In this document: positions 2,686 through 51,836 of the stretch, in pieces
How positions within the stretch are numbered: position 1 is the stretch's first letter
How the letters are laid out: every line of letters starts with the position of its first letter
DNA from: an uncultured Anaerolineales bacterium
GTDB taxonomy: Bacteria; Chloroflexota; Anaerolineae; B4-G1; SLSP01
Direction of reading: 5' to 3'
Assembly: GCA_964496595.1 (NCBI GenBank)
Contig: CAZCAI010000001.1
Location: 22,514-86,513, forward strand
Length of the DNA stretch: 64,000 bases
The notes under the pieces: model-generated
Database searches by the model: none
Told to the model about the DNA's origin: nothing
The model's input: only the letters and a program-made list of their open reading frames with translations
Position numbers and translations under genes: made by a program

Positions 2686-5600
2686 TCATTCCGCTTCGAT
2701 AGGCAGCAGTAGGATAAAGGTCGAGCCTTTTCCCACCTCACTTTCGACTAAAATCTGTCCGTCGTGTGCTTCAATTATACCATAGCTGATAGACAGCCCT
2801 AATCCAGAACCGTGGGGCTTGGTCGTGAAGAACGGCTCAAAGAGGCGATCCTGTGTCTCCTTCGTCATCCCGACGCCCGTGTCGGTGAACTCGATGCGCA
2901 CCCTCCCGTTCTCTTGGGCGGTGCGGAGGATGAGCGTGCCGCCGCTGGGCATCGCGTCGATAGCGTTGAGCACCAGGTTCAGGATGACCTGTTTGAGATG
3001 CGCCGCGTTGGCCGGAATGGTCGGGAGCCCCTCGGCCCAGTGCTTCTCGATGGCCACATCGCTGTGTTGGAGTTGCTTGCCGGAAAGTTCCAATACACTT
3101 CCTAAGACGGCGTGGATATCGATCTCGTCGAGTTCCTCCCGCGCCGGGCGGTAGAAATCGCGAATGCGACGCACGATGGCCGCGATGCGTTCGATCTCAT
3201 CCTCCGCAATGCCCAAATAGCGTTGTAACTTTTCTGGCCGTTGCTGATCACCGATCTCCTCATCGGCTAATGTGAGACAGCCCTGAATCGATTGGAGCGG
3301 ATTGTTGATCTCGTGGGAGATCGAGGCGATCAGCCGGCCCAGCGCGCTCATCTTCTCGCTCTGGATAAGCTTGGCCTGTGTGGATCGCAACGCCTCGATC
3401 TGCTCGATCTGCTTTTGATAGAGGCGCGCGTTTTCCAGAGAGATCGCCGCCGAACTGCTAAAGGCCTTGAGAATCTCCAAATCGTGCGCGTTGAAGGCCC
3501 CATGAATCTTGTTGATCACCTCGATGACGCCGATGCCCTGTCCCTTGACCGTCAGCGGGACGGCGATCAGCGATTCGGTCGTCATGCCGGTCACCTCGTC
3601 GATGCCCCCATAAAAGTCCTGATGCTCCTGCGCGTTGGTGATCAGAATTGGCTCCTGCGCCTGCATCACCTGCCCCGCGATGCCCTCCGTGGCCGAAAGG
3701 CGATGGCCGATCAATATCTGGCAATCGGGATTCGCCAGCGCTGAGAAGACCAGCTCATCTGTTTCGGGATCATAGAGCATCACGGAAGCGTCCTCCGTCT
3801 CCAGCAGGACGTTGACTTCGCGGATTACCTGTTTGAGCACCGTATCCAAATCCAAATTGGAGGCCATCGCGTGGGTGGCGGTGTTGAGCGCGGCCAATTC
3901 GCGCGCGTTGCGCTGGATTTTAGCGTAGAGCCGGGCGTTCTCCATCGCCACGGCGGTCTGATCGGCCAGCGTTTGGAGCAGTTGTTGGTCGGCGAGGGAG
4001 AAGTGCGCGCGCGCCTCGTGTTCCGCGTTGATGATGCCCAATACCCGCCCCTCAAACTTGATTGGGACGCATAGCTCGGAGAGATACCTCGATTCCTTCT
4101 CAAAAGGAGCCTGGTAACGCGGGTCTTGGGATGTGTCTGGGACGTTGACCGTGCGGCCCTGGCTGACGGCCGCTGCGCAGATGCTGGTTTCGTCCTCGAT
4201 GGAGATGCGCTGTGTGGGAGTGATGGTAAACTCTCCATCGATGATGTGGAAGCGTTTGATTAGCTCCCGTTTTTGTGCATCCACGACGCCAAACCCGGCC
4301 AGGGAGGCATCGATGACCTGGGCTGCGGCTTGCAACGTGCGCTTGACCAATGCCTGCTCATCCCGCAGCAATGTCATCTCCTGGCCCAACTGATGGATGG
4401 CTGCCAGTCGCTCGGCCAGGCGCTTGCGCTCGGTGATGTCGATCATCACACCGCGTAACTTGACGGGCTTGCCATCCTCCACAATCACGCTCGCGATGTC
4501 GCGCAACCAGACGATGTTGCCTTTTGCATCGATCATCCGATATTCGAACTCGTGATCCTGTAGTTGACGGGTCGCCTTCGCGCAGAATTCGATGCTCTCC
4601 TTGCGATCCTCCTCGTGAATATGCGACGGCCAGAAATCCGGCTCCTCCGTCCAGCGCTCGAGGGGATAGCCCAACATCTCCTCGGCCTGCGGGCTGACGA
4701 AGGTGAATCGTTGCGTCGCCGCATCCGCCTCCCACACGATGCCGTCGATGGTATTGACAAGCCCGGCGTATTGTTGCTGGGATTGGCGCAGCGCCTCTTC
4801 CGCGCGTTTGCGCTCGATGACGCTGGCCAGTGTGTGCGCCGCCGAATTCAGGAACTCGATCTCATGTTCCTTACGCTGGTGATCCGGCTCTAAATAGAGC
4901 GTCAGAACGCCCAGCGGCGTCTCGCCGGAGAGGATGGGGACGCAATAATGGCCGTGCGGCGCTGTCAGTATATCGGGGCCGGAGATTTTGTGGCGCTCAT
5001 CTAAGTTGCCGGCAAAGATCATACGCTTCTGGGCGACAGCTTGCCCGCACAGACATTCGCCGATGCTGAGCTTCTGGCAACCCATCCGTAACTCCACCTC
5101 GAAGCCGTGCGACGCTTTGAGCGCAAGCGTTTGCCCATGCCCGTTCTCGTCTGTGAGGAAGATGGCGCCCTTGGGCAGGATGGGCAGCCACGAGATGCTC
5201 AGGATGTGTTCCAACGCCTGACTCAACTGCTCGTCGAGCGAGGCTTCGGGTGTGTTTACCGAGATCCGCAGCAGGGCGTTGAGCGCGCTTTGGTGATTAT
5301 GGCTGATTTGCAATTCACGCTCGGCGCGCATCCGCTCAGCGATCTGGGACTCCAATTGCTCATTGGCCTCCGATAGCTCCGCCGTGCGCTGCTGAACGCG
5401 CACCTCCAGCTCATCGTGCGCGCGACGCAGCGCCGCCTGGGCCTCGCGCAGTTCGCGCTTGAGGCGCAGGCGCTCCTTGGCGTGGCGCAGCGCCGCGTTG
5501 AGCGTCGATTGCTCCACCGGCTTAGGGATGAAATCGGAGGCGCCCTCGCGCAGCGCCTCGATGGCCATCTCCATATCGCCGTGGCCGGTGACCAGGATTA

Positions 5601-5844
5601 CCTCGGCCTCCGGGTCGCGCTCGCGGATCGCCCGTAGCACCTCGAAGCCGTCCATATAGGGCATCCGTACATCGACCAACGTGATGTCCGGCCGCGTCTC
5701 GCGATAAATCTCCAAGGCGGCCTGGCCATTCGAGGCCGTGATGACGGGATAGCCCGCCAGGTTGAGATTTCTGGAAAAGGTGTTCAACACCCGCGCGTCG
5801 TCATCGACGACTAAAATTTGTGTCTCTTCTTGAGTTGGCGCCAT
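2686..5844 (-). CDS. Multidomain sensor histidine kinase: N-terminal REC, coiled coil, GAF-PAS-GAF-GAF sensory modules, then HisKA and HATPase_c.
   Basis: 1052 aa. REC domain at the N-terminus (ILVVDDDARVL...LVDVRMPYMDG...KPV). H-box SISHEINNPLQSI. N-box LNLVLNAIDAM. G1 DTGVGM. G2 GSGLGLSISYGII. GGGAGA RBS is upstream of the ATG. Confidence 0.9.
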   Translation of the reverse strand: MAPTQEETQILVVDDDARVLNTFSRNLNLAGYPVITASNGQAALEIYRETRPDITLVDVRMPYMDGFEVLRAIRERDPEAEVILVTGHGDMEMAIEALREGASDFIPKPVEQSTLNAALRHAKERLRLKRELREAQAALRRAHDELEVRVQQRTAELSEANEQLESQIAERMRAERELQISHNHQSALNALLRISVNTPEASLDEQLSQALEHILSISWLPILPKGAIFLTDENGHGQTLALKASHGFEVELRMGCQKLSIGECLCGQAVAQKRMIFAGNLDERHKISGPDILTAPHGHYCVPILSGETPLGVLTLYLEPDHQRKEHEIEFLNSAAHTLASVIERKRAEEALRQSQQQYAGLVNTIDGIVWEADAATQRFTFVSPQAEEMLGYPLERWTEEPDFWPSHIHEEDRKESIEFCAKATRQLQDHEFEYRMIDAKGNIVWLRDIASVIVEDGKPVKLRGVMIDITERKRLAERLAAIHQLGQEMTLLRDEQALVKRTLQAAAQVIDASLAGFGVVDAQKRELIKRFHIIDGEFTITPTQRISIEDETSICAAAVSQGRTVNVPDTSQDPRYQAPFEKESRYLSELCVPIKFEGRVLGIINAEHEARAHFSLADQQLLQTLADQTAVAMENARLYAKIQRNARELAALNTATHAMASNLDLDTVLKQVIREVNVLLETEDASVMLYDPETDELVFSALANPDCQILIGHRLSATEGIAGQVMQAQEPILITNAQEHQDFYGGIDEVTGMTTESLIAVPLTVKGQGIGVIEVINKIHGAFNAHDLEILKAFSSSAAISLENARLYQKQIEQIEALRSTQAKLIQSEKMSALGRLIASISHEINNPLQSIQGCLTLADEEIGDQQRPEKLQRYLGIAEDEIERIAAIVRRIRDFYRPAREELDEIDIHAVLGSVLELSGKQLQHSDVAIEKHWAEGLPTIPANAAHLKQVILNLVLNAIDAMPSGGTLILRTAQENGRVRIEFTDTGVGMTKETQDRLFEPFFTTKPHGSGLGLSISYGIIEAHDGQILVESEVGKGSTFILLLPIEAE

Positions 5845-5896: not shown

Positions 5897-5920
5897 AATT
5901 TCTCCTCGGTAGGAGAAATT
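5897..5920. promoter_or_regulatory. Perfect 10-bp inverted repeat (AATTTCTCCT cggt AGGAGAAATT). It may be an operator or a bidirectional terminator-like hairpin between the kinase operon and the low-GC cassette.
   Basis: Palindrome read directly from the sequence. It lies 53-76 bp upstream of the kinase start codon on the minus strand and has no T-run. Confidence 0.3.
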
Positions 5921-6025
5921 ATATAGGCGATAAGTGGTCTGGTCAATCACGAACTTGTCTCCAAAGGCATTGGGGATCCGGAGTTGGCTCCCCATTTAGT
6001 TCACGTGGTAAAGTGTGGTGGCGTG

Positions 6026-6034
6026 TGGTATACT
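6026..6034 (+). promoter_or_regulatory. Extended -10 promoter element (TGGTATACT) for the 6107..6816 cassette.
   Basis: TGnTATACT match ~75 bp upstream of the ATG at 6107. Confidence 0.3.
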
Positions 6035-6055
6035 TTTTACAGATCAAAGGACCTG

Positions 6056-6077
6056 TAGGTCTACGATAGGTCTACGA
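6056..6077. repeat. 11-bp perfect tandem direct repeat x2 (TAGGTCTACGA TAGGTCTACGA) in the 5' leader of the 6107 gene. Operator-like.
   Basis: Read directly from the sequence. It sits between the putative -10 element and the start codon. Confidence 0.5.
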
Positions 6078-6106
6078 TATAGCCGAGCATAGAAAGGAGT
6101 TTCAGG

Positions 6107-6430
6107 ATGACTGTACAAACTGCGACGAAAACTTTGCAGCGATTAGAACGCTTCTATAACGCGGGATTCCGTACACCGTTGGTGGATCATGCCCTGCATA
6201 AGGTTCTGACTCGACAGATTGCGCGCGACGAAGCTGATTTGGCACAAGTTGAAGCTCGGCTCGCCGAATTTGAAGAGCGGTATGCGATGGACTCAGCAAT
6301 TTTTGGGGAGAAATATCAGGCCGGGCAGCTATCTGACGACGCCGATTACGTCGAATGGAATGCTTTTTGCAAAATGCGCCAGCGACTTCGGCAACGCCTT
6401 ACCATCCTGTGCGGTGAAGACTCCCTATGA
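6107..6430 (+). CDS. Hypothetical protein (107 aa), first gene of a low-GC translationally coupled pair.
   Basis: ORF with RBS AAGGAG 8 nt upstream. GC ~50% against ~64% background. Stop overlaps the next start (ATGA). Confidence 0.6.
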   Translation: MTVQTATKTLQRLERFYNAGFRTPLVDHALHKVLTRQIARDEADLAQVEARLAEFEERYAMDSAIFGEKYQAGQLSDDADYVEWNAFCKMRQRLRQRLTILCGEDSL

Positions 6431-6816
6431 CCGAGCCTGCTGACTATTTGGCTGCTGTAGAAACTTTGCTGTTGGTCTCCGAAATCATTGCGGATTACAC
6501 ATTGGTCACTGCCCGCGCTAACACCGACGATGGTTATCTTCGCATCCGGGCGACCCTCAGCAATGGTGATTTTCTCGAAATGGCGGAATACTTCCTGGTG
6601 CTTGAGGATGAAATCATCACGGAAGATTATCGTTATCAATGGATGGATAGTACCCAAACAGTTTTGCGGCGTCGATGGGATAATACCCCGCAACATCCTG
6701 AGCTTGATGGATTTCCTCATCACTGTCATATAGTTCGAGAAGATAGGGTTGTTCCTATTGAGCCGTTGAGTATTTTGGAGTTGTTCGAACTGCTAGAAGC
6801 CGAACTGGAGATCTAG
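6427..6816 (+). CDS. Hypothetical protein (129 aa), second gene of the pair. It contains an R-x6-H motif (RWDNTPQH) reminiscent of HEPN; this is weak.
   Basis: ATGA start/stop overlap with the upstream gene. GC ~46%. Acidic C-terminus. Confidence 0.55.
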   Translation: MTEPADYLAAVETLLLVSEIIADYTLVTARANTDDGYLRIRATLSNGDFLEMAEYFLVLEDEIITEDYRYQWMDSTQTVLRRRWDNTPQHPELDGFPHHCHIVREDRVVPIEPLSILELFELLEAELEI

Positions 6817-6861
6817 TAAATTGTCATCGCCCTCTCCAATGCACTCTCCAACCCTCAGCCC

Positions 6862-8097
6862 TCAATCCCTCACATCCACATGCCGCCGGCTCTGAGCCGA
6901 TTCCAAAATCGCGTCGCAGACGACGGCGGCGCGATAGCCGTCCTCGAAGGTGGCGCCGTAGGGCGCGACGGGCCGGTCATTGACGATGCACTCTAAGAAG
7001 TGGCTGAGTTCGTGGATGAAGGTGTGCTCCCAGCCGATGATGTGCCCCTGGGGCCACCAGTTTTGCCACCACGGATGGTACGGCTCGCTGACCAGCACCT
7101 TGTGGAAGCCGCGCGTCTCCTTGGGCTCTTCCCCGACCCAGAAGACGTCTATCTCGTTCATCCGCTCCAGGTTGAAGCGTAGGGTCCCGTTCTCCCCGTT
7201 GATCTCCAGCACCTGATGGTTCTTCCGCCCGGCCGCGAAGCGCGTTGCCTCTAGCGTGCCGATGGCGCCATTCTCGAAGGCAATCGTGGCGACGAAGGCG
7301 TCGTCCACATCGACCTCGCCCATCTCGCTACTGCCATCCCCCAGCCGCCGCTTCTTGATAAAGGTGCGCGTCATCGCGCCGACCTCAGTGATCTCCCCCA
7401 CCAGGAAGCGCGCCAGATCGATGATGTGCGCGCCCAAATCCCCCAGCGCGCCGCTGCCCGCCTTCTCTTTCTGCAAACGCCAGATCAGCGGCAGATCGTA
7501 GTGGCCCATAATCCACTCCTGGAGGTAGGCGGCGCGGAAGTGATAGATGCGGCCCAACGCCCCGCGCTGGATCAGCTCGTAGGCCTGGCGGAGCGCGGGC
7601 ACGAAGCGGTAGTTGAACGCGACCATGTGTTTGACGCCGGCAGCCGCCACCGCGTCCCACATCTCCCTGGCCTCCTCGGTATTGCGGGCCAGCGGCTTCT
7701 CGCAGAAGACGTGCTTCCCCGCCTGGGCTGCCGCGATGGTCGGCGCGGCGTGCAGATAATTCGGGCTGCCGTTGTCGAAGAGCTGCACCCGCTCATCCGC
7801 GATCATCTCGCGCCAGTCGGTGTAGACGCGCGCGTAGCCGTAGCGGCGCGCCGCCTCCCGGACGGCGTCCTCCGTCCGACCGCAGATCGCCTCCAGGCGC
7901 GGGATCGCGGGCGGCGGATACATCATATAGGGGATCTTCTTGTAGGCGTTGGTGTGCGCCTTGCCCATAAAGGCGTAGCCCAGCATCCCCACGCCGATCT
8001 CCGGCGCTTCCCGCTCGGCCTTCGCGCCGGCCATCGTAGTGAACCCGCCGCCTTCGTTGTTGGTGTTAGCTTGGTTGGGCGTATCGATTTGGGTCAT
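6862..8097 (-). CDS. Gfo/Idh/MocA-family NAD(P)-dependent oxidoreductase.
   Basis: Rossmann-fold N-terminus IGVGMLGYAFMGKAHTNAY. Family-typical EKP motif (HVFCEKPLARN). GAAGGAGA RBS is upstream of the ATG at 8097. Confidence 0.85.
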   Translation of the reverse strand: MTQIDTPNQANTNNEGGGFTTMAGAKAEREAPEIGVGMLGYAFMGKAHTNAYKKIPYMMYPPPAIPRLEAICGRTEDAVREAARRYGYARVYTDWREMIADERVQLFDNGSPNYLHAAPTIAAAQAGKHVFCEKPLARNTEEAREMWDAVAAAGVKHMVAFNYRFVPALRQAYELIQRGALGRIYHFRAAYLQEWIMGHYDLPLIWRLQKEKAGSGALGDLGAHIIDLARFLVGEITEVGAMTRTFIKKRRLGDGSSEMGEVDVDDAFVATIAFENGAIGTLEATRFAAGRKNHQVLEINGENGTLRFNLERMNEIDVFWVGEEPKETRGFHKVLVSEPYHPWWQNWWPQGHIIGWEHTFIHELSHFLECIVNDRPVAPYGATFEDGYRAAVVCDAILESAQSRRHVDVRD

Positions 8098-14018: not shown

Positions 14019-14228
14019 TCACGTACCTCCGGGTCTATCTGCTGAGTAGCTGAGAACGGCTTGAATATCCTCCGGCTCCAAATAGGGATAGGCTGCTAGA
14101 ATTTCTTCCCGGGTCATACCATTGGCGATCAGATTTAAGATCAGGGAGACCGTGATGCGCATACCGCGAATGCACGCTCGCCCACCTTTCACCCGTCGGT
14201 CAAAAGTGATGCGTTCTAGACCAAACAT
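14019..14228 (-). CDS. DUF433-family small protein (antitoxin-like). No DUF5615 partner is present.
   Basis: 69 aa. RACIRGMRITVSLILNLIANGMTREEILAAYPYLEPEDIQAVLSY matches the DUF433 signature. Lies 7 bp from the downstream M16 start. Confidence 0.7.
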   Translation of the reverse strand: MFGLERITFDRRVKGGRACIRGMRITVSLILNLIANGMTREEILAAYPYLEPEDIQAVLSYSADRPGGT

Positions 14229-26308: not shown

Positions 26309-26320
26309 CGTAAACCCCTC

Positions 26321-26374
26321 CTTGGTTTCCTTGGTTTCCTTGGTTTCCTTGGTTTCCTTGGTTTCCTTGGTTTC
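26321..26374. repeat. Perfect 9-bp tandem repeat x6 (CTTGGTTTC on the + strand; GAAACCAAG on the gene strand) immediately upstream of the RBS of the giant secreted-protein gene.
   Basis: Read directly from the sequence. Ends 4 nt before GGAGGGG and 13 nt before the start codon. Confidence 0.8.
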
Positions 26375-38217: not shown

Positions 38218-41200
38218 ATGAATATAATAGATACAAATAAAACAACACGCGAAACAATTAGCTTATCCCCGCGCATTTTTTATACGTTTCTCCTATTGAT
38301 TTTCCTGGTCGCGGGCGCCTTTCGCTTCTATCAGCTCGATTGGGATGTTGGCACGCACTTGCATCCCGATGAGCGTTATCTCACGATGGTGGCCGGCGCG
38401 ATTCGCTTCCCGGAGAGCCTCAGTCAGTATTGGGATACCTCAAGTTCGCCGCTGAATCCTGCTAACCACGAATCGTTCGCAGGCTATGTCTACGGCACGC
38501 TGCCGCTCTTCGTGACACGCGCCGTGGGGGAGGCGTTGGATTCAGCCTGCGCCGATCCCGCCGGCTTGGGCGGGCGTCTGGTTCGAGCGTTTTTAGCCTC
38601 GCCGGAGATGTGCTCGCCGGGACGCTTTACGGGCTATAGCGGCATCCACCTGGTGGGGAGGGCGCTTTCCTCTGTAGCCGATTTGATGACGTTGCTCGCC
38701 TTGATCCTCTTGGCGCGTATGCTCTATGGGGATCGCGTGGCCCTGCTATCCGGCGCGCTCTATGCCTGCGCTGTGCTACCGATTCAACACGCGCATTTTT
38801 TCGTCGTCGATAGCTTCGCTGCCGTCTTCGTCATCTGGACGCTCACGTTAGCCATGTACGCTATCCATTCGGATCAGATGTGGTCTCTTATGCTCGCCGG
38901 CGTGACGACAGGATTAGCCGTCGCCTGCAAGATCAGCGTGTGGCCCGTGGCCGGGATGGTGGGCCTGGCCGGGTTGATCTTCCGCCGCCAGGATGAGACG
39001 ACGGGCCGTGCATATTACGCTCTCGATCTCACAGCCCCGCGCGTCGTCGCGCTCGTGCTCTCCGGGATCGGCGCCGCGCTGGCGTTCCGCATCGCGCAAC
39101 CCTATGCCTTCGCCGGGCCAGGCTTCATCAGCCTGCGACTTAATCCCCACTGGTTAGACAATATGCGCTCTATACAGCGCCTGGTCACCGGCCAGGCCGA
39201 TGCGCCGCCCGGCCATCAATGGGCCAATCGCGCCCGGATCATCTTCCCGGCCCGCAATATGATCGTCTGGGGTTTGGGGCTGCCGCTGGGTCTGACGGCC
39301 TGGATCGCCTGGGCCGTGATGGGCTGGCGCACACTGCGCCAGCAACAGTGGCGCCATCTGCTGCCGTGGAGCTGGGGAACGCTCTTCTTCCTCTACCAGG
39401 GCACGCAGTGGGTCAAATCGATGCGCTATCTGCTGCCGATTTATCCCGTCTTCGTGCTTTTCGCCGCGTGGCTGTTGGTTCAGTTGACGCGCAAAACCTG
39501 GACGCGCCCCCGTATCGACAAAATCTGGCGGATCGGGAGCCGCGTGCTCCGCGGCGGCGTGTTGCTCGGCGCCGCGCTGTGGGCGGTGGCATTCTTGCAG
39601 ATCTATGCCCGTCCCGTCACGCGCATCGAGGCCTCGGAGTGGATGTTTGATAATCTTCCCACCGCCATCACCCTGAAAACCATTCAAGGCGTGAAAATCC
39701 AGGTCCCTATTCGAGAGTTGACGCTCAATAAGGCCAGCGCATCGGTCCGACTCTCAATCCCCTGGTCGCATCCCGAGGCGCAACCGGAGCACATCATGTT
39801 GAACAAAGTGAGCGGGGTGGGGGTCGCAGGCGAGCGGGAGATCCGCATTATATTGGCGGAGGATCCGCATCAACAGACGATCCTGGCCGAGGCCATCGCT
39901 ACCGCCGATGTGCCGGCTCTGGGCAACACGTCCGTGACGGCGCTTTTACCCGCATCAATGCGAGAGTGGACGGCGGACGAAGATCTATACCTCTTTATCG
40001 ACTTGCTATCGGGTCCGGCGATTAAACTGGAAACCTCAGTGATCGCCAATGAGCATTGGGATGATCCGCTGCCCTTGCGCATCGATGGCCGCGATCCCTT
40101 TGGCAATTGGTACCAGGGCGTCACAGCGATGCACGGCGGCTTGATGACGCTCTATGATAATGACACCATCGAGAAGCGCGAGCAACTGCTCAACGCGCTC
40201 GACGAGGTGGATTACATCGCGCTCTCCAGCAACCGCCTCTACGGCTCGATCCCGCGCCTTCCGATGCGCTATCCGTTGACCACGGCCTACTACGACGCGC
40301 TCTTCGATGGCAGTTTGGGCTTCAAATTACTGGCGAAGTTCGTCTCCTATCCGGCGCTGGGGCCGTGTCAATTCCCAGATCAAGAATCGCCCTTTGAAAT
40401 CCCCCCGGCGACTTATACGAACGCCCTTCCTTGCTCGGTTCCCTTGCCGCCGGCCGAGGAAGCCTTCAGCGTCTACGATCACCCCCGGGTATTGATCTTT
40501 GCCAAGACACCCGCGTATTCTCGCGCGAATGCGGAGTTCGCGCTCCCCGCCTCGCTGCTGAACGATGTTCAATGGATGACGCCGCGCGATGCCACGCGGG
40601 GAAGCGCTGGCGAAGAGAGCGCGAAGTTGATTATGTCGCCGGAGATGCGAGAGGCGCAGGAATCCGGCGGAACATGGTCGCAGCTCTTTAATCGCGACGC
40701 CTGGCACAATCGATTCCAGCCGTTAGCGGTGCTGCTCTGGTGGATGATGGTGACCCTGCTGGGATGGATGGGGTTTGTGGCGCTTTATCATATCTTCCCC
40801 GCGCTCCGCTATCGCGGCTACGGCTTGGGTAAAGCCGCCGGTCTATTGCTGTGGGCTTACCCGGCGTGGCTGCTGGCCGGCGTGTATCTCGTGCCGCACA
40901 TGCGCGTGCTGCTGTGGGCCGTGTTCTTCGTTGAAATCGGCATCGCGGCAGCGGTGGTGCGAAATAAGTTCCCTGAATTCCGAACGTTTGTTCTAACACA
41001 CTGGCGCGCTCTTCTGCGCATCGAGGGGATCTTCTTAACGCTCTTCTTAGTCTGGGTCGGCATGCGCTATCTCAACCCCGATCTGTGGCATCCCGTGGTC
41101 GGCGGCGAGAAACCGATGGACTTAGCCTATCTCAACGCCGTGATCAAATCCACCTGGTTTCCGCCCTACGATCCGTGGTTCGCCGGCGGGGTGATGAACT

Positions 41201-43314
41201 ACTACTACTTCGGCTTCGTGCTGGTCGGCGCGCTGATCAAGGCGCTGGGCATCGTACCCAGCATCGGCTACAACCTGGCGATCCCGATGCTCTTCGCGAT
41301 GACGGGGGTGGGGGCCTACACTTTGGCCTCCAATCTGGCCGGGGACGGCGAACGCCGCGGCCATCGGGCCGGCCTGCTGGGAGTGTTGCTCGTGCTGCTC
41401 CTGGGCAACTTAGGCGAGATACGGTTGCTCCAGGCCGGATTTGCAAAGATCGGCGATGTACAATTCGATAGTCTAATTCCCGGCTATTCCACCTGGGTCT
41501 CGGCTCTGGTTGGCGTCTGGAAAGTCCTCTTCGAGGGGGAGCGACTGATGTTCCGCACCGAGTGGTGGTACTGGAACGCCACCCGCATCCTGACGGCCAC
41601 AGGCAGCGACATCGGCGCGATCAACGAGTTCCCGATCTTCTCATTCCTCTATGGCGACCTTCACGCGCACGTGATGGCCTATCCGCTGACGCAGTTGGCT
41701 TTAGCTATCGCAATCCAGTGGGCCGTGGGGATTCAACACAGGCTGCGCGTTACGCCTCAGGGCTGGCGCGCCTATCTGAGTGAGCTTCTACCGCGGCCTC
41801 TTGGCTCTTTCTTCTTCGCGGCGTTGATCGCCGGCGCGCTTCGCGCGACCAACACCTGGGATTATCCCACCTACATCGGCGTGATGAGCGTCGCCCTGCT
41901 CTTAAACGTCTTTTTTTCATTAGAGTCCGCCAGATCAGTAAGCAAAGCTGCTGAATCTGCCGATGAAGCAGATCAGACAGAAACCATAGAGGAAACTAAA
42001 TCTGCGCCGCCTATGCCGCCTATGCCGCCTATGCCGCCTATGCCGCCTATGCCCCAGTGGCTTTGCGCTGCGCTCAAATTAGCCACGCCTTTTCTGATCG
42101 TCGCCCTGGCCGAGCTGTTGTTTCGTCCCTTCACCGCGAATTACGCCGTCGCTTATAGCGCCTTCGAGCGCTGGGAAGGGGGGCGCACGCCCGTGGGGAA
42201 ATACCTGATTATGCACGGGCACTTCCTCTTCCCCATCACGTTGTTGGCGCTGGCGGAAGGGTGGGGCGCTATTCGGGGCTGGTTCGGGGAAGGGATTGAT
42301 CTCGCGGAAGAGAGCTTCTTGGAGAGATCTAACACCGTTGCCTGGTGGTCGGTCGTCATCGTAGCGGCACTGCTATTGATGAGCATTTTGCTGATCTTAG
42401 AAGTGCAGGTTGCGTGGATCGCCGTGCCGCTGGGCGTCATCGCCGGAATATTGGTCATCGCGCCGGATACGGCCCCGCGCGCTCGATTACTGTGGTTTAT
42501 GACCGGCTCCGCGATGGCGCTCAGCTTGATGGTGGAGCTGTTAGTACTGCGCGGCGACATCGGGCGGATGAATACGGTCTTCAAGTTCTATCTTCAGGTG
42601 TGGATGTTGCTGGCGCTCAGCGCTGCCGTCGCTGTCGAGCGATTGCTGCATCTGGTGATGTCGGCGCCTGAAGCGATGACCGGGGAGAACCCACTGAAGC
42701 GCCTCTATCGCGATACGTGGGTGGGGGACGCCATCATCGTCGGCCTAACGCTGCTCCTCTTCGCGACGGCGCTTTATACAGCCCTGGCGCTGCCGGCGCG
42801 CGTGCGCGATCGCTGGCGTCCAGAAGCGCCGCACACGTTGGATGGAGCGGCTTATATGTCCTACGCGGTACAATATGAACAAGGCAGTGAGATTCCATTG
42901 CGTGTGGACGCGGGCGTGATCCGCTGGCTTCAGGAGAACGTGAGCGGCTCCCCCACGATCATCGAGGGGCAGGCAGAGCGCGAGTATCTCTGGGGCAATC
43001 GGGTCAGCGTTTATACCGGCTTACCGGCGGTGACAGCGTGGCGCTGGCACCAGGTTCAGCAGCGGATGGCGATGCCGGGCGGCGTCGTGGAGCAGCGGCA
43101 GATGGACATCCGCAGCTTCTACAACACGCCCGATCCGAAGGTCGCGCGACAGATTCTGGAGCGCTACGAGGTCGAGTACGTCATTATGACGCCCTATGAA
43201 CGAGCCTATATGCTGCCGGAGGGTGAGACCAAATTCGCGCCGATGGTCAAGCGGGGCTGGCTGGAGATCGTCTACAAAACCGCTGAGGCTACGATTTATC
43301 GCGTGGGGCCGTGA
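38218..43314 (+). CDS. Very large polytopic membrane protein, GT-C-fold glycosyltransferase-like (DUF2298/ArnT/PMT-like N-terminal domain), with an internal (PMP)n repeat.
   Basis: 1698 aa with >20 predicted TM helices. N-terminal loop motif HPDERYLT after TM1 is typical of GT-C enzymes. The family assignment is inference. Confidence 0.7.
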   Translation: MNIIDTNKTTRETISLSPRIFYTFLLLIFLVAGAFRFYQLDWDVGTHLHPDERYLTMVAGAIRFPESLSQYWDTSSSPLNPANHESFAGYVYGTLPLFVTRAVGEALDSACADPAGLGGRLVRAFLASPEMCSPGRFTGYSGIHLVGRALSSVADLMTLLALILLARMLYGDRVALLSGALYACAVLPIQHAHFFVVDSFAAVFVIWTLTLAMYAIHSDQMWSLMLAGVTTGLAVACKISVWPVAGMVGLAGLIFRRQDETTGRAYYALDLTAPRVVALVLSGIGAALAFRIAQPYAFAGPGFISLRLNPHWLDNMRSIQRLVTGQADAPPGHQWANRARIIFPARNMIVWGLGLPLGLTAWIAWAVMGWRTLRQQQWRHLLPWSWGTLFFLYQGTQWVKSMRYLLPIYPVFVLFAAWLLVQLTRKTWTRPRIDKIWRIGSRVLRGGVLLGAALWAVAFLQIYARPVTRIEASEWMFDNLPTAITLKTIQGVKIQVPIRELTLNKASASVRLSIPWSHPEAQPEHIMLNKVSGVGVAGEREIRIILAEDPHQQTILAEAIATADVPALGNTSVTALLPASMREWTADEDLYLFIDLLSGPAIKLETSVIANEHWDDPLPLRIDGRDPFGNWYQGVTAMHGGLMTLYDNDTIEKREQLLNALDEVDYIALSSNRLYGSIPRLPMRYPLTTAYYDALFDGSLGFKLLAKFVSYPALGPCQFPDQESPFEIPPATYTNALPCSVPLPPAEEAFSVYDHPRVLIFAKTPAYSRANAEFALPASLLNDVQWMTPRDATRGSAGEESAKLIMSPEMREAQESGGTWSQLFNRDAWHNRFQPLAVLLWWMMVTLLGWMGFVALYHIFPALRYRGYGLGKAAGLLLWAYPAWLLAGVYLVPHMRVLLWAVFFVEIGIAAAVVRNKFPEFRTFVLTHWRALLRIEGIFLTLFLVWVGMRYLNPDLWHPVVGGEKPMDLAYLNAVIKSTWFPPYDPWFAGGVMNYYYFGFVLVGALIKALGIVPSIGYNLAIPMLFAMTGVGAYTLASNLAGDGERRGHRAGLLGVLLVLLLGNLGEIRLLQAGFAKIGDVQFDSLIPGYSTWVSALVGVWKVLFEGERLMFRTEWWYWNATRILTATGSDIGAINEFPIFSFLYGDLHAHVMAYPLTQLALAIAIQWAVGIQHRLRVTPQGWRAYLSELLPRPLGSFFFAALIAGALRATNTWDYPTYIGVMSVALLLNVFFSLESARSVSKAAESADEADQTETIEETKSAPPMPPMPPMPPMPPMPQWLCAALKLATPFLIVALAELLFRPFTANYAVAYSAFERWEGGRTPVGKYLIMHGHFLFPITLLALAEGWGAIRGWFGEGIDLAEESFLERSNTVAWWSVVIVAALLLMSILLILEVQVAWIAVPLGVIAGILVIAPDTAPRARLLWFMTGSAMALSLMVELLVLRGDIGRMNTVFKFYLQVWMLLALSAAVAVERLLHLVMSAPEAMTGENPLKRLYRDTWVGDAIIVGLTLLLFATALYTALALPARVRDRWRPEAPHTLDGAAYMSYAVQYEQGSEIPLRVDAGVIRWLQENVSGSPTIIEGQAEREYLWGNRVSVYTGLPAVTAWRWHQVQQRMAMPGGVVEQRQMDIRSFYNTPDPKVARQILERYEVEYVIMTPYERAYMLPEGETKFAPMVKRGWLEIVYKTAEATIYRVGP
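42007..42051 (+). repeat. In-frame 9-bp tandem repeat x5 (CCGCCTATG) encoding PPMPPMPPMPPMPPM within the 38218 gene.
   Basis: Read directly from the sequence. Confidence 0.8.
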
Positions 43315-51708: not shown

Positions 51709-51836
51709 TACGTCTCCTCATTACTCCTACTTTACTCCTACTTTAGATCGGAAAATAGCCCCATTGTTCGGGCCGACGTCCTCGCCGTGCCCGTGGTAGC
51801 TTGGCGGGGACGCCAGCCACAACCCACGATGAAACC

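Follow-up and report, generated by a model that had tools for sequence, protein, structure and literature searches.

The whole stretch of DNA analyzed here, referred to as the window, is 64,000 nt long and holds two short overlapping genes beside a hybrid sensor-kinase gene. An earlier note had read them as a low-GC toxin-antitoxin or small defense cassette with a promoter and an operator-like tandem repeat of its own, flanked by a palindrome. This reading raises three questions: whether the two proteins belong to a named family, which of the nearby elements are part of the cassette, and how the cassette came to lie at this locus.

Identity of the gene pair

The segment at 5978..6861 (plus strand) comprises a promoter, a leader, tumA, tumE, and a 3' spacer, and its left edge is the start of homology with cassette-bearing relatives. 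We consider it very probably a TumE-TumA module, one of the type II toxin-antitoxin systems. The TumE-TumA superfamily, introduced by Durairaj et al. (Nature 2023; PMC10584680), corresponds to Pfam PF20126, formerly DUF6516. According to that study, a small partner gene usually lies upstream of DUF6516 genes, and in six gammaproteobacterial pairs the toxin was toxic in E. coli and was neutralized by its partner. The A. tepidum toxin, the only one examined by metabolic labeling, reduced 35S-Met incorporation (PMC10584680). An RNase activity of TumE was put forward in the same work as a proposal without demonstration, validated members included, and our search of the literature found no later mechanistic work on TumE. 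Because the supplement of that paper gives the accessions of the validated pairs and not their sequences, we took as the reference for direct comparison the RefSeq-named antitoxin TumA and toxin TumE pair of Nostoc plasmid p057_H.

Profile and BLASTP homology to TumA and TumE bears out the earlier suggestion of a two-gene toxin-antitoxin cassette in which the antitoxin gene precedes the toxin gene. The earlier note had left both proteins without a named family and had proposed a Pfam search; in fact, Pfam and NCBIfam name TumE, and NCBIfam names TumA. In Pfam, the product of gene 2 (tumE; 6427..6816, plus strand; 129 aa) is Toxin TumE, PF20126, with an E value of 2.2e-19 and a score of 69.6 bits (gathering score, 23.4) over profile positions 2 to 80 of 81. 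It is 34% identical to the TumE of the Nostoc plasmid (E value, 1e-15). The product of gene 1 (tumA; 6107..6430, plus strand; 107 aa, a long form) has no Pfam domain; its assignment rests on NCBIfam NF045776 (“antitoxin TumA”), PADLOC PDC-M44A, and BLASTP. The NF045776 match has an E value of 1.7e-10 and covers residues 45 to 98 only, and the identity to the Nostoc antitoxin is 32% (E value, 3e-9). Both proteins also match PADLOC candidate-defense models, namely, PDC-M44A for TumA (E value, 5.9e-11) and PDC-M44B for TumE (E value, 1.6e-16).

Neither protein reaches its NCBIfam equivalog cutoff: TumE scores 59.6 bits against 90 (NF045777), and TumA scores 40.9 bits against 100. Judged by sequence, the pair is a further homolog in the already described TumE-TumA family, placed in a diverged subfamily and not an equivalog; it appears full length and intact and belongs to a diverged long-TumA subclass. 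Both genes can thus be named tumA and tumE instead of “hypothetical,” a change of little importance beyond annotation. With this locus, the toxin-antitoxin family gains a long-TumA example of the Chloroflexota type.

Conserved residues and predicted fold of TumE

The AF2 model of TumE (34 homologs; pLDDT, 95.5) consists of a helix at residues 4 to 17, seven strands, and a helix at residues 116 to 127. It agrees with the published prediction for DUF6516, a seven-stranded antiparallel sheet with two packed helices and without a PDB relative (PMC10584680). Likewise, a search by sequence found no PDB relative of the window protein, and the best Foldseek match had an E value of 0.06, with TM scores of at most 0.34. 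An alignment of this subfamily with two proteins that RefSeq or GenBank names “toxin TumE” shows 13 invariant residues, all of them kept in the window protein: R39, R41, Y68, R69, D74, R83, D85, P88, F96, P97, H98, H99, and H101. The conserved TumE signature, as it appears from this alignment, is R-x-D-x2-P...FPHHxH, complete in the window protein. The R-x-D...FPHHxH residues are reasonable mutagenesis targets for the unproven RNase activity of TumE.

The earlier note had pointed to an R-x6-H motif in the second protein as compatible with a HEPN-like RNase. In the window TumE, this motif consists of the invariant R83 and of H90. Homologs vary at the latter position (H, Y, F, or W), and the RefSeq-named TumE has F there; because of this variability, the HEPN suggestion is not supported. 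No HEPN match was found in Pfam at an E value of 1 or below or among the Foldseek PDB hits, and the modeled alpha+beta fold, with its seven strands, is incompatible with the all-helical HEPN fold.

A long form of TumA

The AF2 model of TumA is all-helical, with four helices (pLDDT, 84). In this model, we recognized no RHH, HTH, or AbrB-like fold, and matching of the predicted fold against the PDB gave nothing significant. The N-terminal ~44 aa are an extension beyond the 76-aa TumA profile and are conserved among close homologs. The profile matches 922 cluster representatives at an E value of 1e-3 or below, and most of the best hits are ~100 to 110 aa long. Since long forms dominate the best of these representatives, the long TumA is no oddity of the locus; it is, as far as these lengths indicate, a common subclass. 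DNA binding by TumA partners has been predicted by DeepFRI (PMC10584680). Autoregulation by the window TumA is an assumption, because the protein has no recognizable DNA-binding fold.

Gene arrangement and composition

The two open reading frames overlap by ATGA, the start of tumE overlapping the stop of tumA, exactly as the earlier note had described. A Shine-Dalgarno sequence, AAGGAG, can be read at 6094..6099 (plus strand), 7 nt before the tumA ATG, and the GAAAGGAG/AAGGAG block is kept in the leaders of the related loci L168, L169, L170, L083, and L084.

The GC content is 51% for tumA and 47% for tumE, against 60 to 65% for the flanking kinase and oxidoreductase genes and 59.4% for the whole window. 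The contrast claimed by the earlier note is therefore real, whereas its figure of ~64% for the context was slightly high. The GC3 values, 0.50 for tumA and 0.48 for tumE, are the lowest among the credible genes of the window (others, 0.55 to 0.88), and the comparison of GC and codon usage that had been suggested thus shows the cassette to be compositionally foreign. In 65 of 68 related loci, including all 36 in high-GC hosts, the cassette has a higher AT content than the flanking DNA; low GC is therefore a trait of the family.

Promoter, leader, and tandem repeat

A putative extended -10 element, TGGTATACT, can be read at 6026..6034 (plus strand) and is identical in L168 and L169, the metagenome contigs that carry the nearest relatives. 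In 24 of 70 related loci, the 120 nt ahead of tumA contain the pattern TGnTAnnnT, compared with 8.2 ± 2.6 in shuffles and with none of 61 control coding segments. A scan for the sigma-70 consensus did not call the cassette promoter because its -35 region is weak; transcription is predicted to start near 6041. The cassette probably has its own extended -10 promoter, as had been proposed; the enrichment upstream of tumA supports it.

The leader also carries a perfect 11-bp tandem duplication, TAGGTCTACGA twice, at 6056..6077 (plus strand); these are the only copies in the window. Of 20,000 shuffled versions of the intergenic region, only 22 gave any perfect tandem of at least 9 nt. In L168 and L169, TAGGTCTACGA is single, their promoter and leader being otherwise 96.6% identical to the window. 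No perfect tandem of at least 9 nt was found in 70 other tumA upstream regions, including the leaders of TumA proteins with 64 to 81% identity, and in the latter leaders no conservation was seen between the -10 element and the Shine-Dalgarno sequence. The window as a whole has ~12 sites of perfect tandem duplication with a period of 9 to 11, including two other 11-mers, against a chance expectation of fewer than 0.3. Duplications of this period being frequent in the window, the doubling of TAGGTCTACGA is not special as such. Most likely, it is a recent slippage duplication that would have lengthened the 5' untranslated region by 11 nt. The repeat described in the earlier note is thus present and may have some regulatory effect, but the comparisons do not support the dedicated operator inferred from it, given the single copy in L168 and L169 and the absence of such a repeat from the 70 leaders.

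A more elaborate reading is a long shot: the ~44-aa extension of long TumA proteins, in Chloroflexota and cyanobacteria, would be the missing DNA-binding or autoregulatory module, the 11-nt unit would be its site, and the duplication would be a recent rewiring of expression. The unit contains a quasi-palindrome, GTAGGTCTAC. If the extension does bind it, the lineage-specific duplication would represent rewired toxin-antitoxin expression rather than neutral slippage.

The other duplication sites lie at 724, 3394, 10698, 26319-26372, 36915, 42006-42050, 44168, 44644, 51721, and 52858. At 26319-26372, TCCTTGGTT is repeated six times in an intergenic region; GCCGCCTAT is repeated five times inside a 1698-aa open reading frame (38218..43314); and the further 11-mer duplications, at 51721 and 52858, are both intergenic. 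This excess suggests a slippage-prone genome or contingency-like repeats.

An RNA structure or riboswitch in the leader was considered and ruled out, as the leader folds no better than its shuffles (z, -0.19 for the window, with two copies of the unit, and +0.13 for L168, with one). No Rfam match was found in the whole window.

A palindrome at the kinase promoter

The perfect 10+10 palindrome AATTTCTCCT-cggt-AGGAGAAATT at 5897..5920 is unique in the window. Partly overlapping it, a strong sigma-70-like promoter, TTGACC-17-TATAAT (5918..5946, minus strand), points toward the hybrid sensor-kinase gene at 2686..5844 on the same strand and has 11 of 12 consensus matches. Sites with at least 11 of 12 matches number three in the 64-kb window, and 29 of 5,000 intergenic shuffles (0.6%) reach this score. 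The palindrome begins within this minus-strand TATAAT box, sharing its last 3 nt, and extends across the start predicted near 5911 for the kinase transcript. Being to the left of 5978, it falls outside the stretch of homology with L168 and L169, and neither contig has it. From this placement, we infer that it serves the kinase promoter as an operator-like site and is not a cassette boundary. The 10-bp stems reported in the earlier note do exist, but they do not flank the cassette. Neither the eye-catching tandem repeat nor the palindrome should be attributed to the cassette.

A role as a terminator was ruled out for the palindrome, where no terminator-like site was called and no T-run is present. 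Placed over the -10 box and the +1 position, it is a candidate repressor operator of the hybrid sensor-kinase/response-regulator operon.

Occurrence in other genomes

Relatives of TumE occur at 341 loci in a set of species-representative genomes. Their hosts are mostly Anaerolineae, Caldilineae, other Chloroflexota, and filamentous cyanobacteria, with a few Desulfobacterota. This set holds no close copy of the window pair (best identity, 62%); identical proteins are present in one NCBI assembly and in Logan runs SRR15425353 and SRR15425355. A TumA homolog sits directly upstream of TumE, on the same strand, in 69 of the best 80 of the 341 loci. The overlap between the two genes is 4 nt in 26 loci, 8 nt in 16, and 1 nt in 13, together 55 of 76 related pairs, a count that includes the window and the identical loci L001 and L002. 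Neighbors of the cassette vary between loci and are often other toxin-antitoxin pairs (UPF0175/DUF3368 and ParE/RelB). Homologs are found on nine cyanobacterial plasmids, and none is found in 50,697 INPHARED phage records.

Some close relatives differ in their makeup. L083 (5845-6490) has an orphan tumA (81% identical) without tumE, flanked by a ~100-nt direct repeat that includes the promoter and leader of this tumA, an arrangement that would fit loss of tumE through recombination of one leader copy with the other. In L084 (411-662), tumE is called at only 83 aa, and its PF20126 match is weak. In L170 (310-1001), tumA is followed by an unrelated convergent nucleotidyltransferase gene (NTP_transf_2/Polbeta), and in L171 an overlapping 117-aa open reading frame precedes tumA. 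L084, L170, and L171 show what appears to be decay or rearrangement of the cassette.

History of the locus

BLASTN aligned positions 5978-7679 of the window with positions 741-2419 of L168 at 91.3% identity and positions 5978-6925 with L169 at 92.3%. The longer stretch runs from the promoter and leader through tumA, tumE, and the spacer into the convergent gene for a GFO/IDH/MocA-type oxidoreductase. Compared with L168, the cassette DNA is 94 to 96% identical and the oxidoreductase part is 90% identical; the proteins of the pair are 91 to 94% identical. Left of 5978, L168 and L169 have an acetyltransferase gene where the window has the kinase gene. Since the stretch that includes the oxidoreductase gene is 91 to 92% identical, the pair already adjoined that gene in the common ancestor.

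In more distant relatives, the cassette is missing from the same locus, as a check of related strains, suggested in the earlier note, brought out. Namely, none of the 80 metagenome loci with an oxidoreductase of 65 to 79% amino acid identity carries tumAE downstream of that gene, and in those loci a xylose-isomerase-like gene upstream of the oxidoreductase gene is usually syntenic. Synteny without tumAE in 80 loci argues that the cassette is an insertion at a synteny break that predates the split from the L168 lineage. Together with the low GC3, the AT-rich cassettes and varied neighbors at related loci, and the plasmid-borne homologs, these comparisons indicate that the cassette was acquired horizontally before the split from the nearest sampled relatives and then stably inherited in the lineage.

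L117 and L119 each hold a distant TumE-like sequence (781-1017; 31% identity), ~1.2 kb upstream of the syntenic pair of xylose-isomerase-like and oxidoreductase genes, a position that differs from that of the window cassette.

A 10-mer, AGAAATTATA, occurs both in the window (5914-5923) and in L168 (731-740), just left of the homology breakpoint of the latter. In the window, it is part of the right arm of the palindrome and of the kinase -10 box. The match is only weakly significant (28 of 1,000 shuffles), and the window may have an insertion of ~54 nt (5924-5977) relative to L168.

The spacer between tumE and the oxidoreductase gene (6817-6861) is C-rich, with imperfect 12-nt repeats (GCCCTCTCCAAT and GCACTCTCCAAC), and is 12 nt, or one repeat unit, longer than that of L168. 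No terminator-like hairpin was found in it.

Proposed working and alternative readings

Drawing on the validated homologs, we propose the following working of the module. Transcription from the extended -10 promoter TGGTATACT would yield a single bicistronic mRNA, with tumA translated from the strong AAGGAG and tumE translationally coupled to it through ATGA. Free TumE would block protein synthesis through the conserved R-x-D...FPHHxH face on its sheet, possibly by cutting RNA, an unproven activity. The all-helical TumA would bind and neutralize TumE. The homology, fold, gene order, and composition of the window pair are results of the present analysis; toxicity, neutralization, and translation inhibition by it are expected from its validated relatives, and RNase chemistry and autoregulation are unproven proposals for the whole TumE-TumA family.

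The main role of the pair could be anti-phage defense by abortive infection instead of simple addiction or stability, which would be compatible with its TumAE identity. Both proteins match the PDC-M44 models, and related loci adjoin other toxin-antitoxin pairs and a restriction-modification-like gene. However, PDC-M44 is a candidate only, and we found no literature on it; the neighbors in the window are a two-component system and sugar-metabolism genes rather than a defense island, and the phage records hold no homolog. We regard a mainly anti-phage role as possible, if rather doubtful. It is improbable, in turn, that decay or domestication has left the cassette as a remnant without toxin activity. 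Decay does occur in related loci, as the orphan tumA of L083, the 83-aa tumE of L084, and the tumA of L170 with its unrelated partner illustrate. In the window, however, both reading frames are full length with the family-invariant residues intact, the proteins are 91 to 94% identical to those of L168, and the cassette DNA is better conserved relative to L168 than the adjacent oxidoreductase gene is.

Slightly less credible still is the reading that makes protein 2 a HEPN-like RNase with an R-x6-H motif and protein 1 an autorepressor acting on the 11-bp repeats. R83 and H90 are both present, the DeepFRI prediction (PMC10584680) would fit a DNA-binding partner, and a protein bound at the repeat, past the promoter and ahead of the Shine-Dalgarno sequence, could block transcription. 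Against this stand the variable position 90, the alpha+beta model, and the lack of a HEPN hit on the toxin side, together with a repeat unit that is single in the nearest relatives and not repeated in the 70 leaders and a TumA without an RHH, HTH, or AbrB-like fold.

Comparison with known toxin-antitoxin systems

The pair shares with TumE-TumA the toxin domain, the predicted fold, the R-x-D...FPHHxH residues, antitoxin-first overlapping genes, and a TumA-homologous antitoxin. In contrast to the RefSeq-named proteins, it is only 32 to 34% identical to them and scores below the equivalog cutoffs; unlike the 76-aa TumA profile, its 107-aa TumA has the conserved ~44-aa N-terminal extension; and unlike the validated pairs, it comes from a Chloroflexota-like host lineage rather than from Gammaproteobacteria. 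With HEPN-MNT and HEPN RNase toxins, it has in common a small two-gene module and a toxin presumed to act against RNA or translation, but it has no conserved Rx4-6H, an alpha+beta fold, no profile hit, and a partner that is not a nucleotidyltransferase. It is similar to RelBE-type systems in its upstream antitoxin, translational coupling, translation as target, and presumed catalytic residues on a beta-sheet face, and one cluster-1 partner has been described as a remote RelB homolog (PMC10584680). Yet no sequence or fold match to RelE or RelB was found in Pfam or the PDB, and TumA is without an RHH DNA-binding strand.

Elsewhere in the window, with no obvious small toxin partner adjacent to it (the next gene encodes 439 aa), a 69-aa open reading frame at 14019-14228 (minus strand) matches Pfam DUF433 (E value, 1.5e-23); with a GC3 of 0.51, it is small, atypical, and antitoxin-like.
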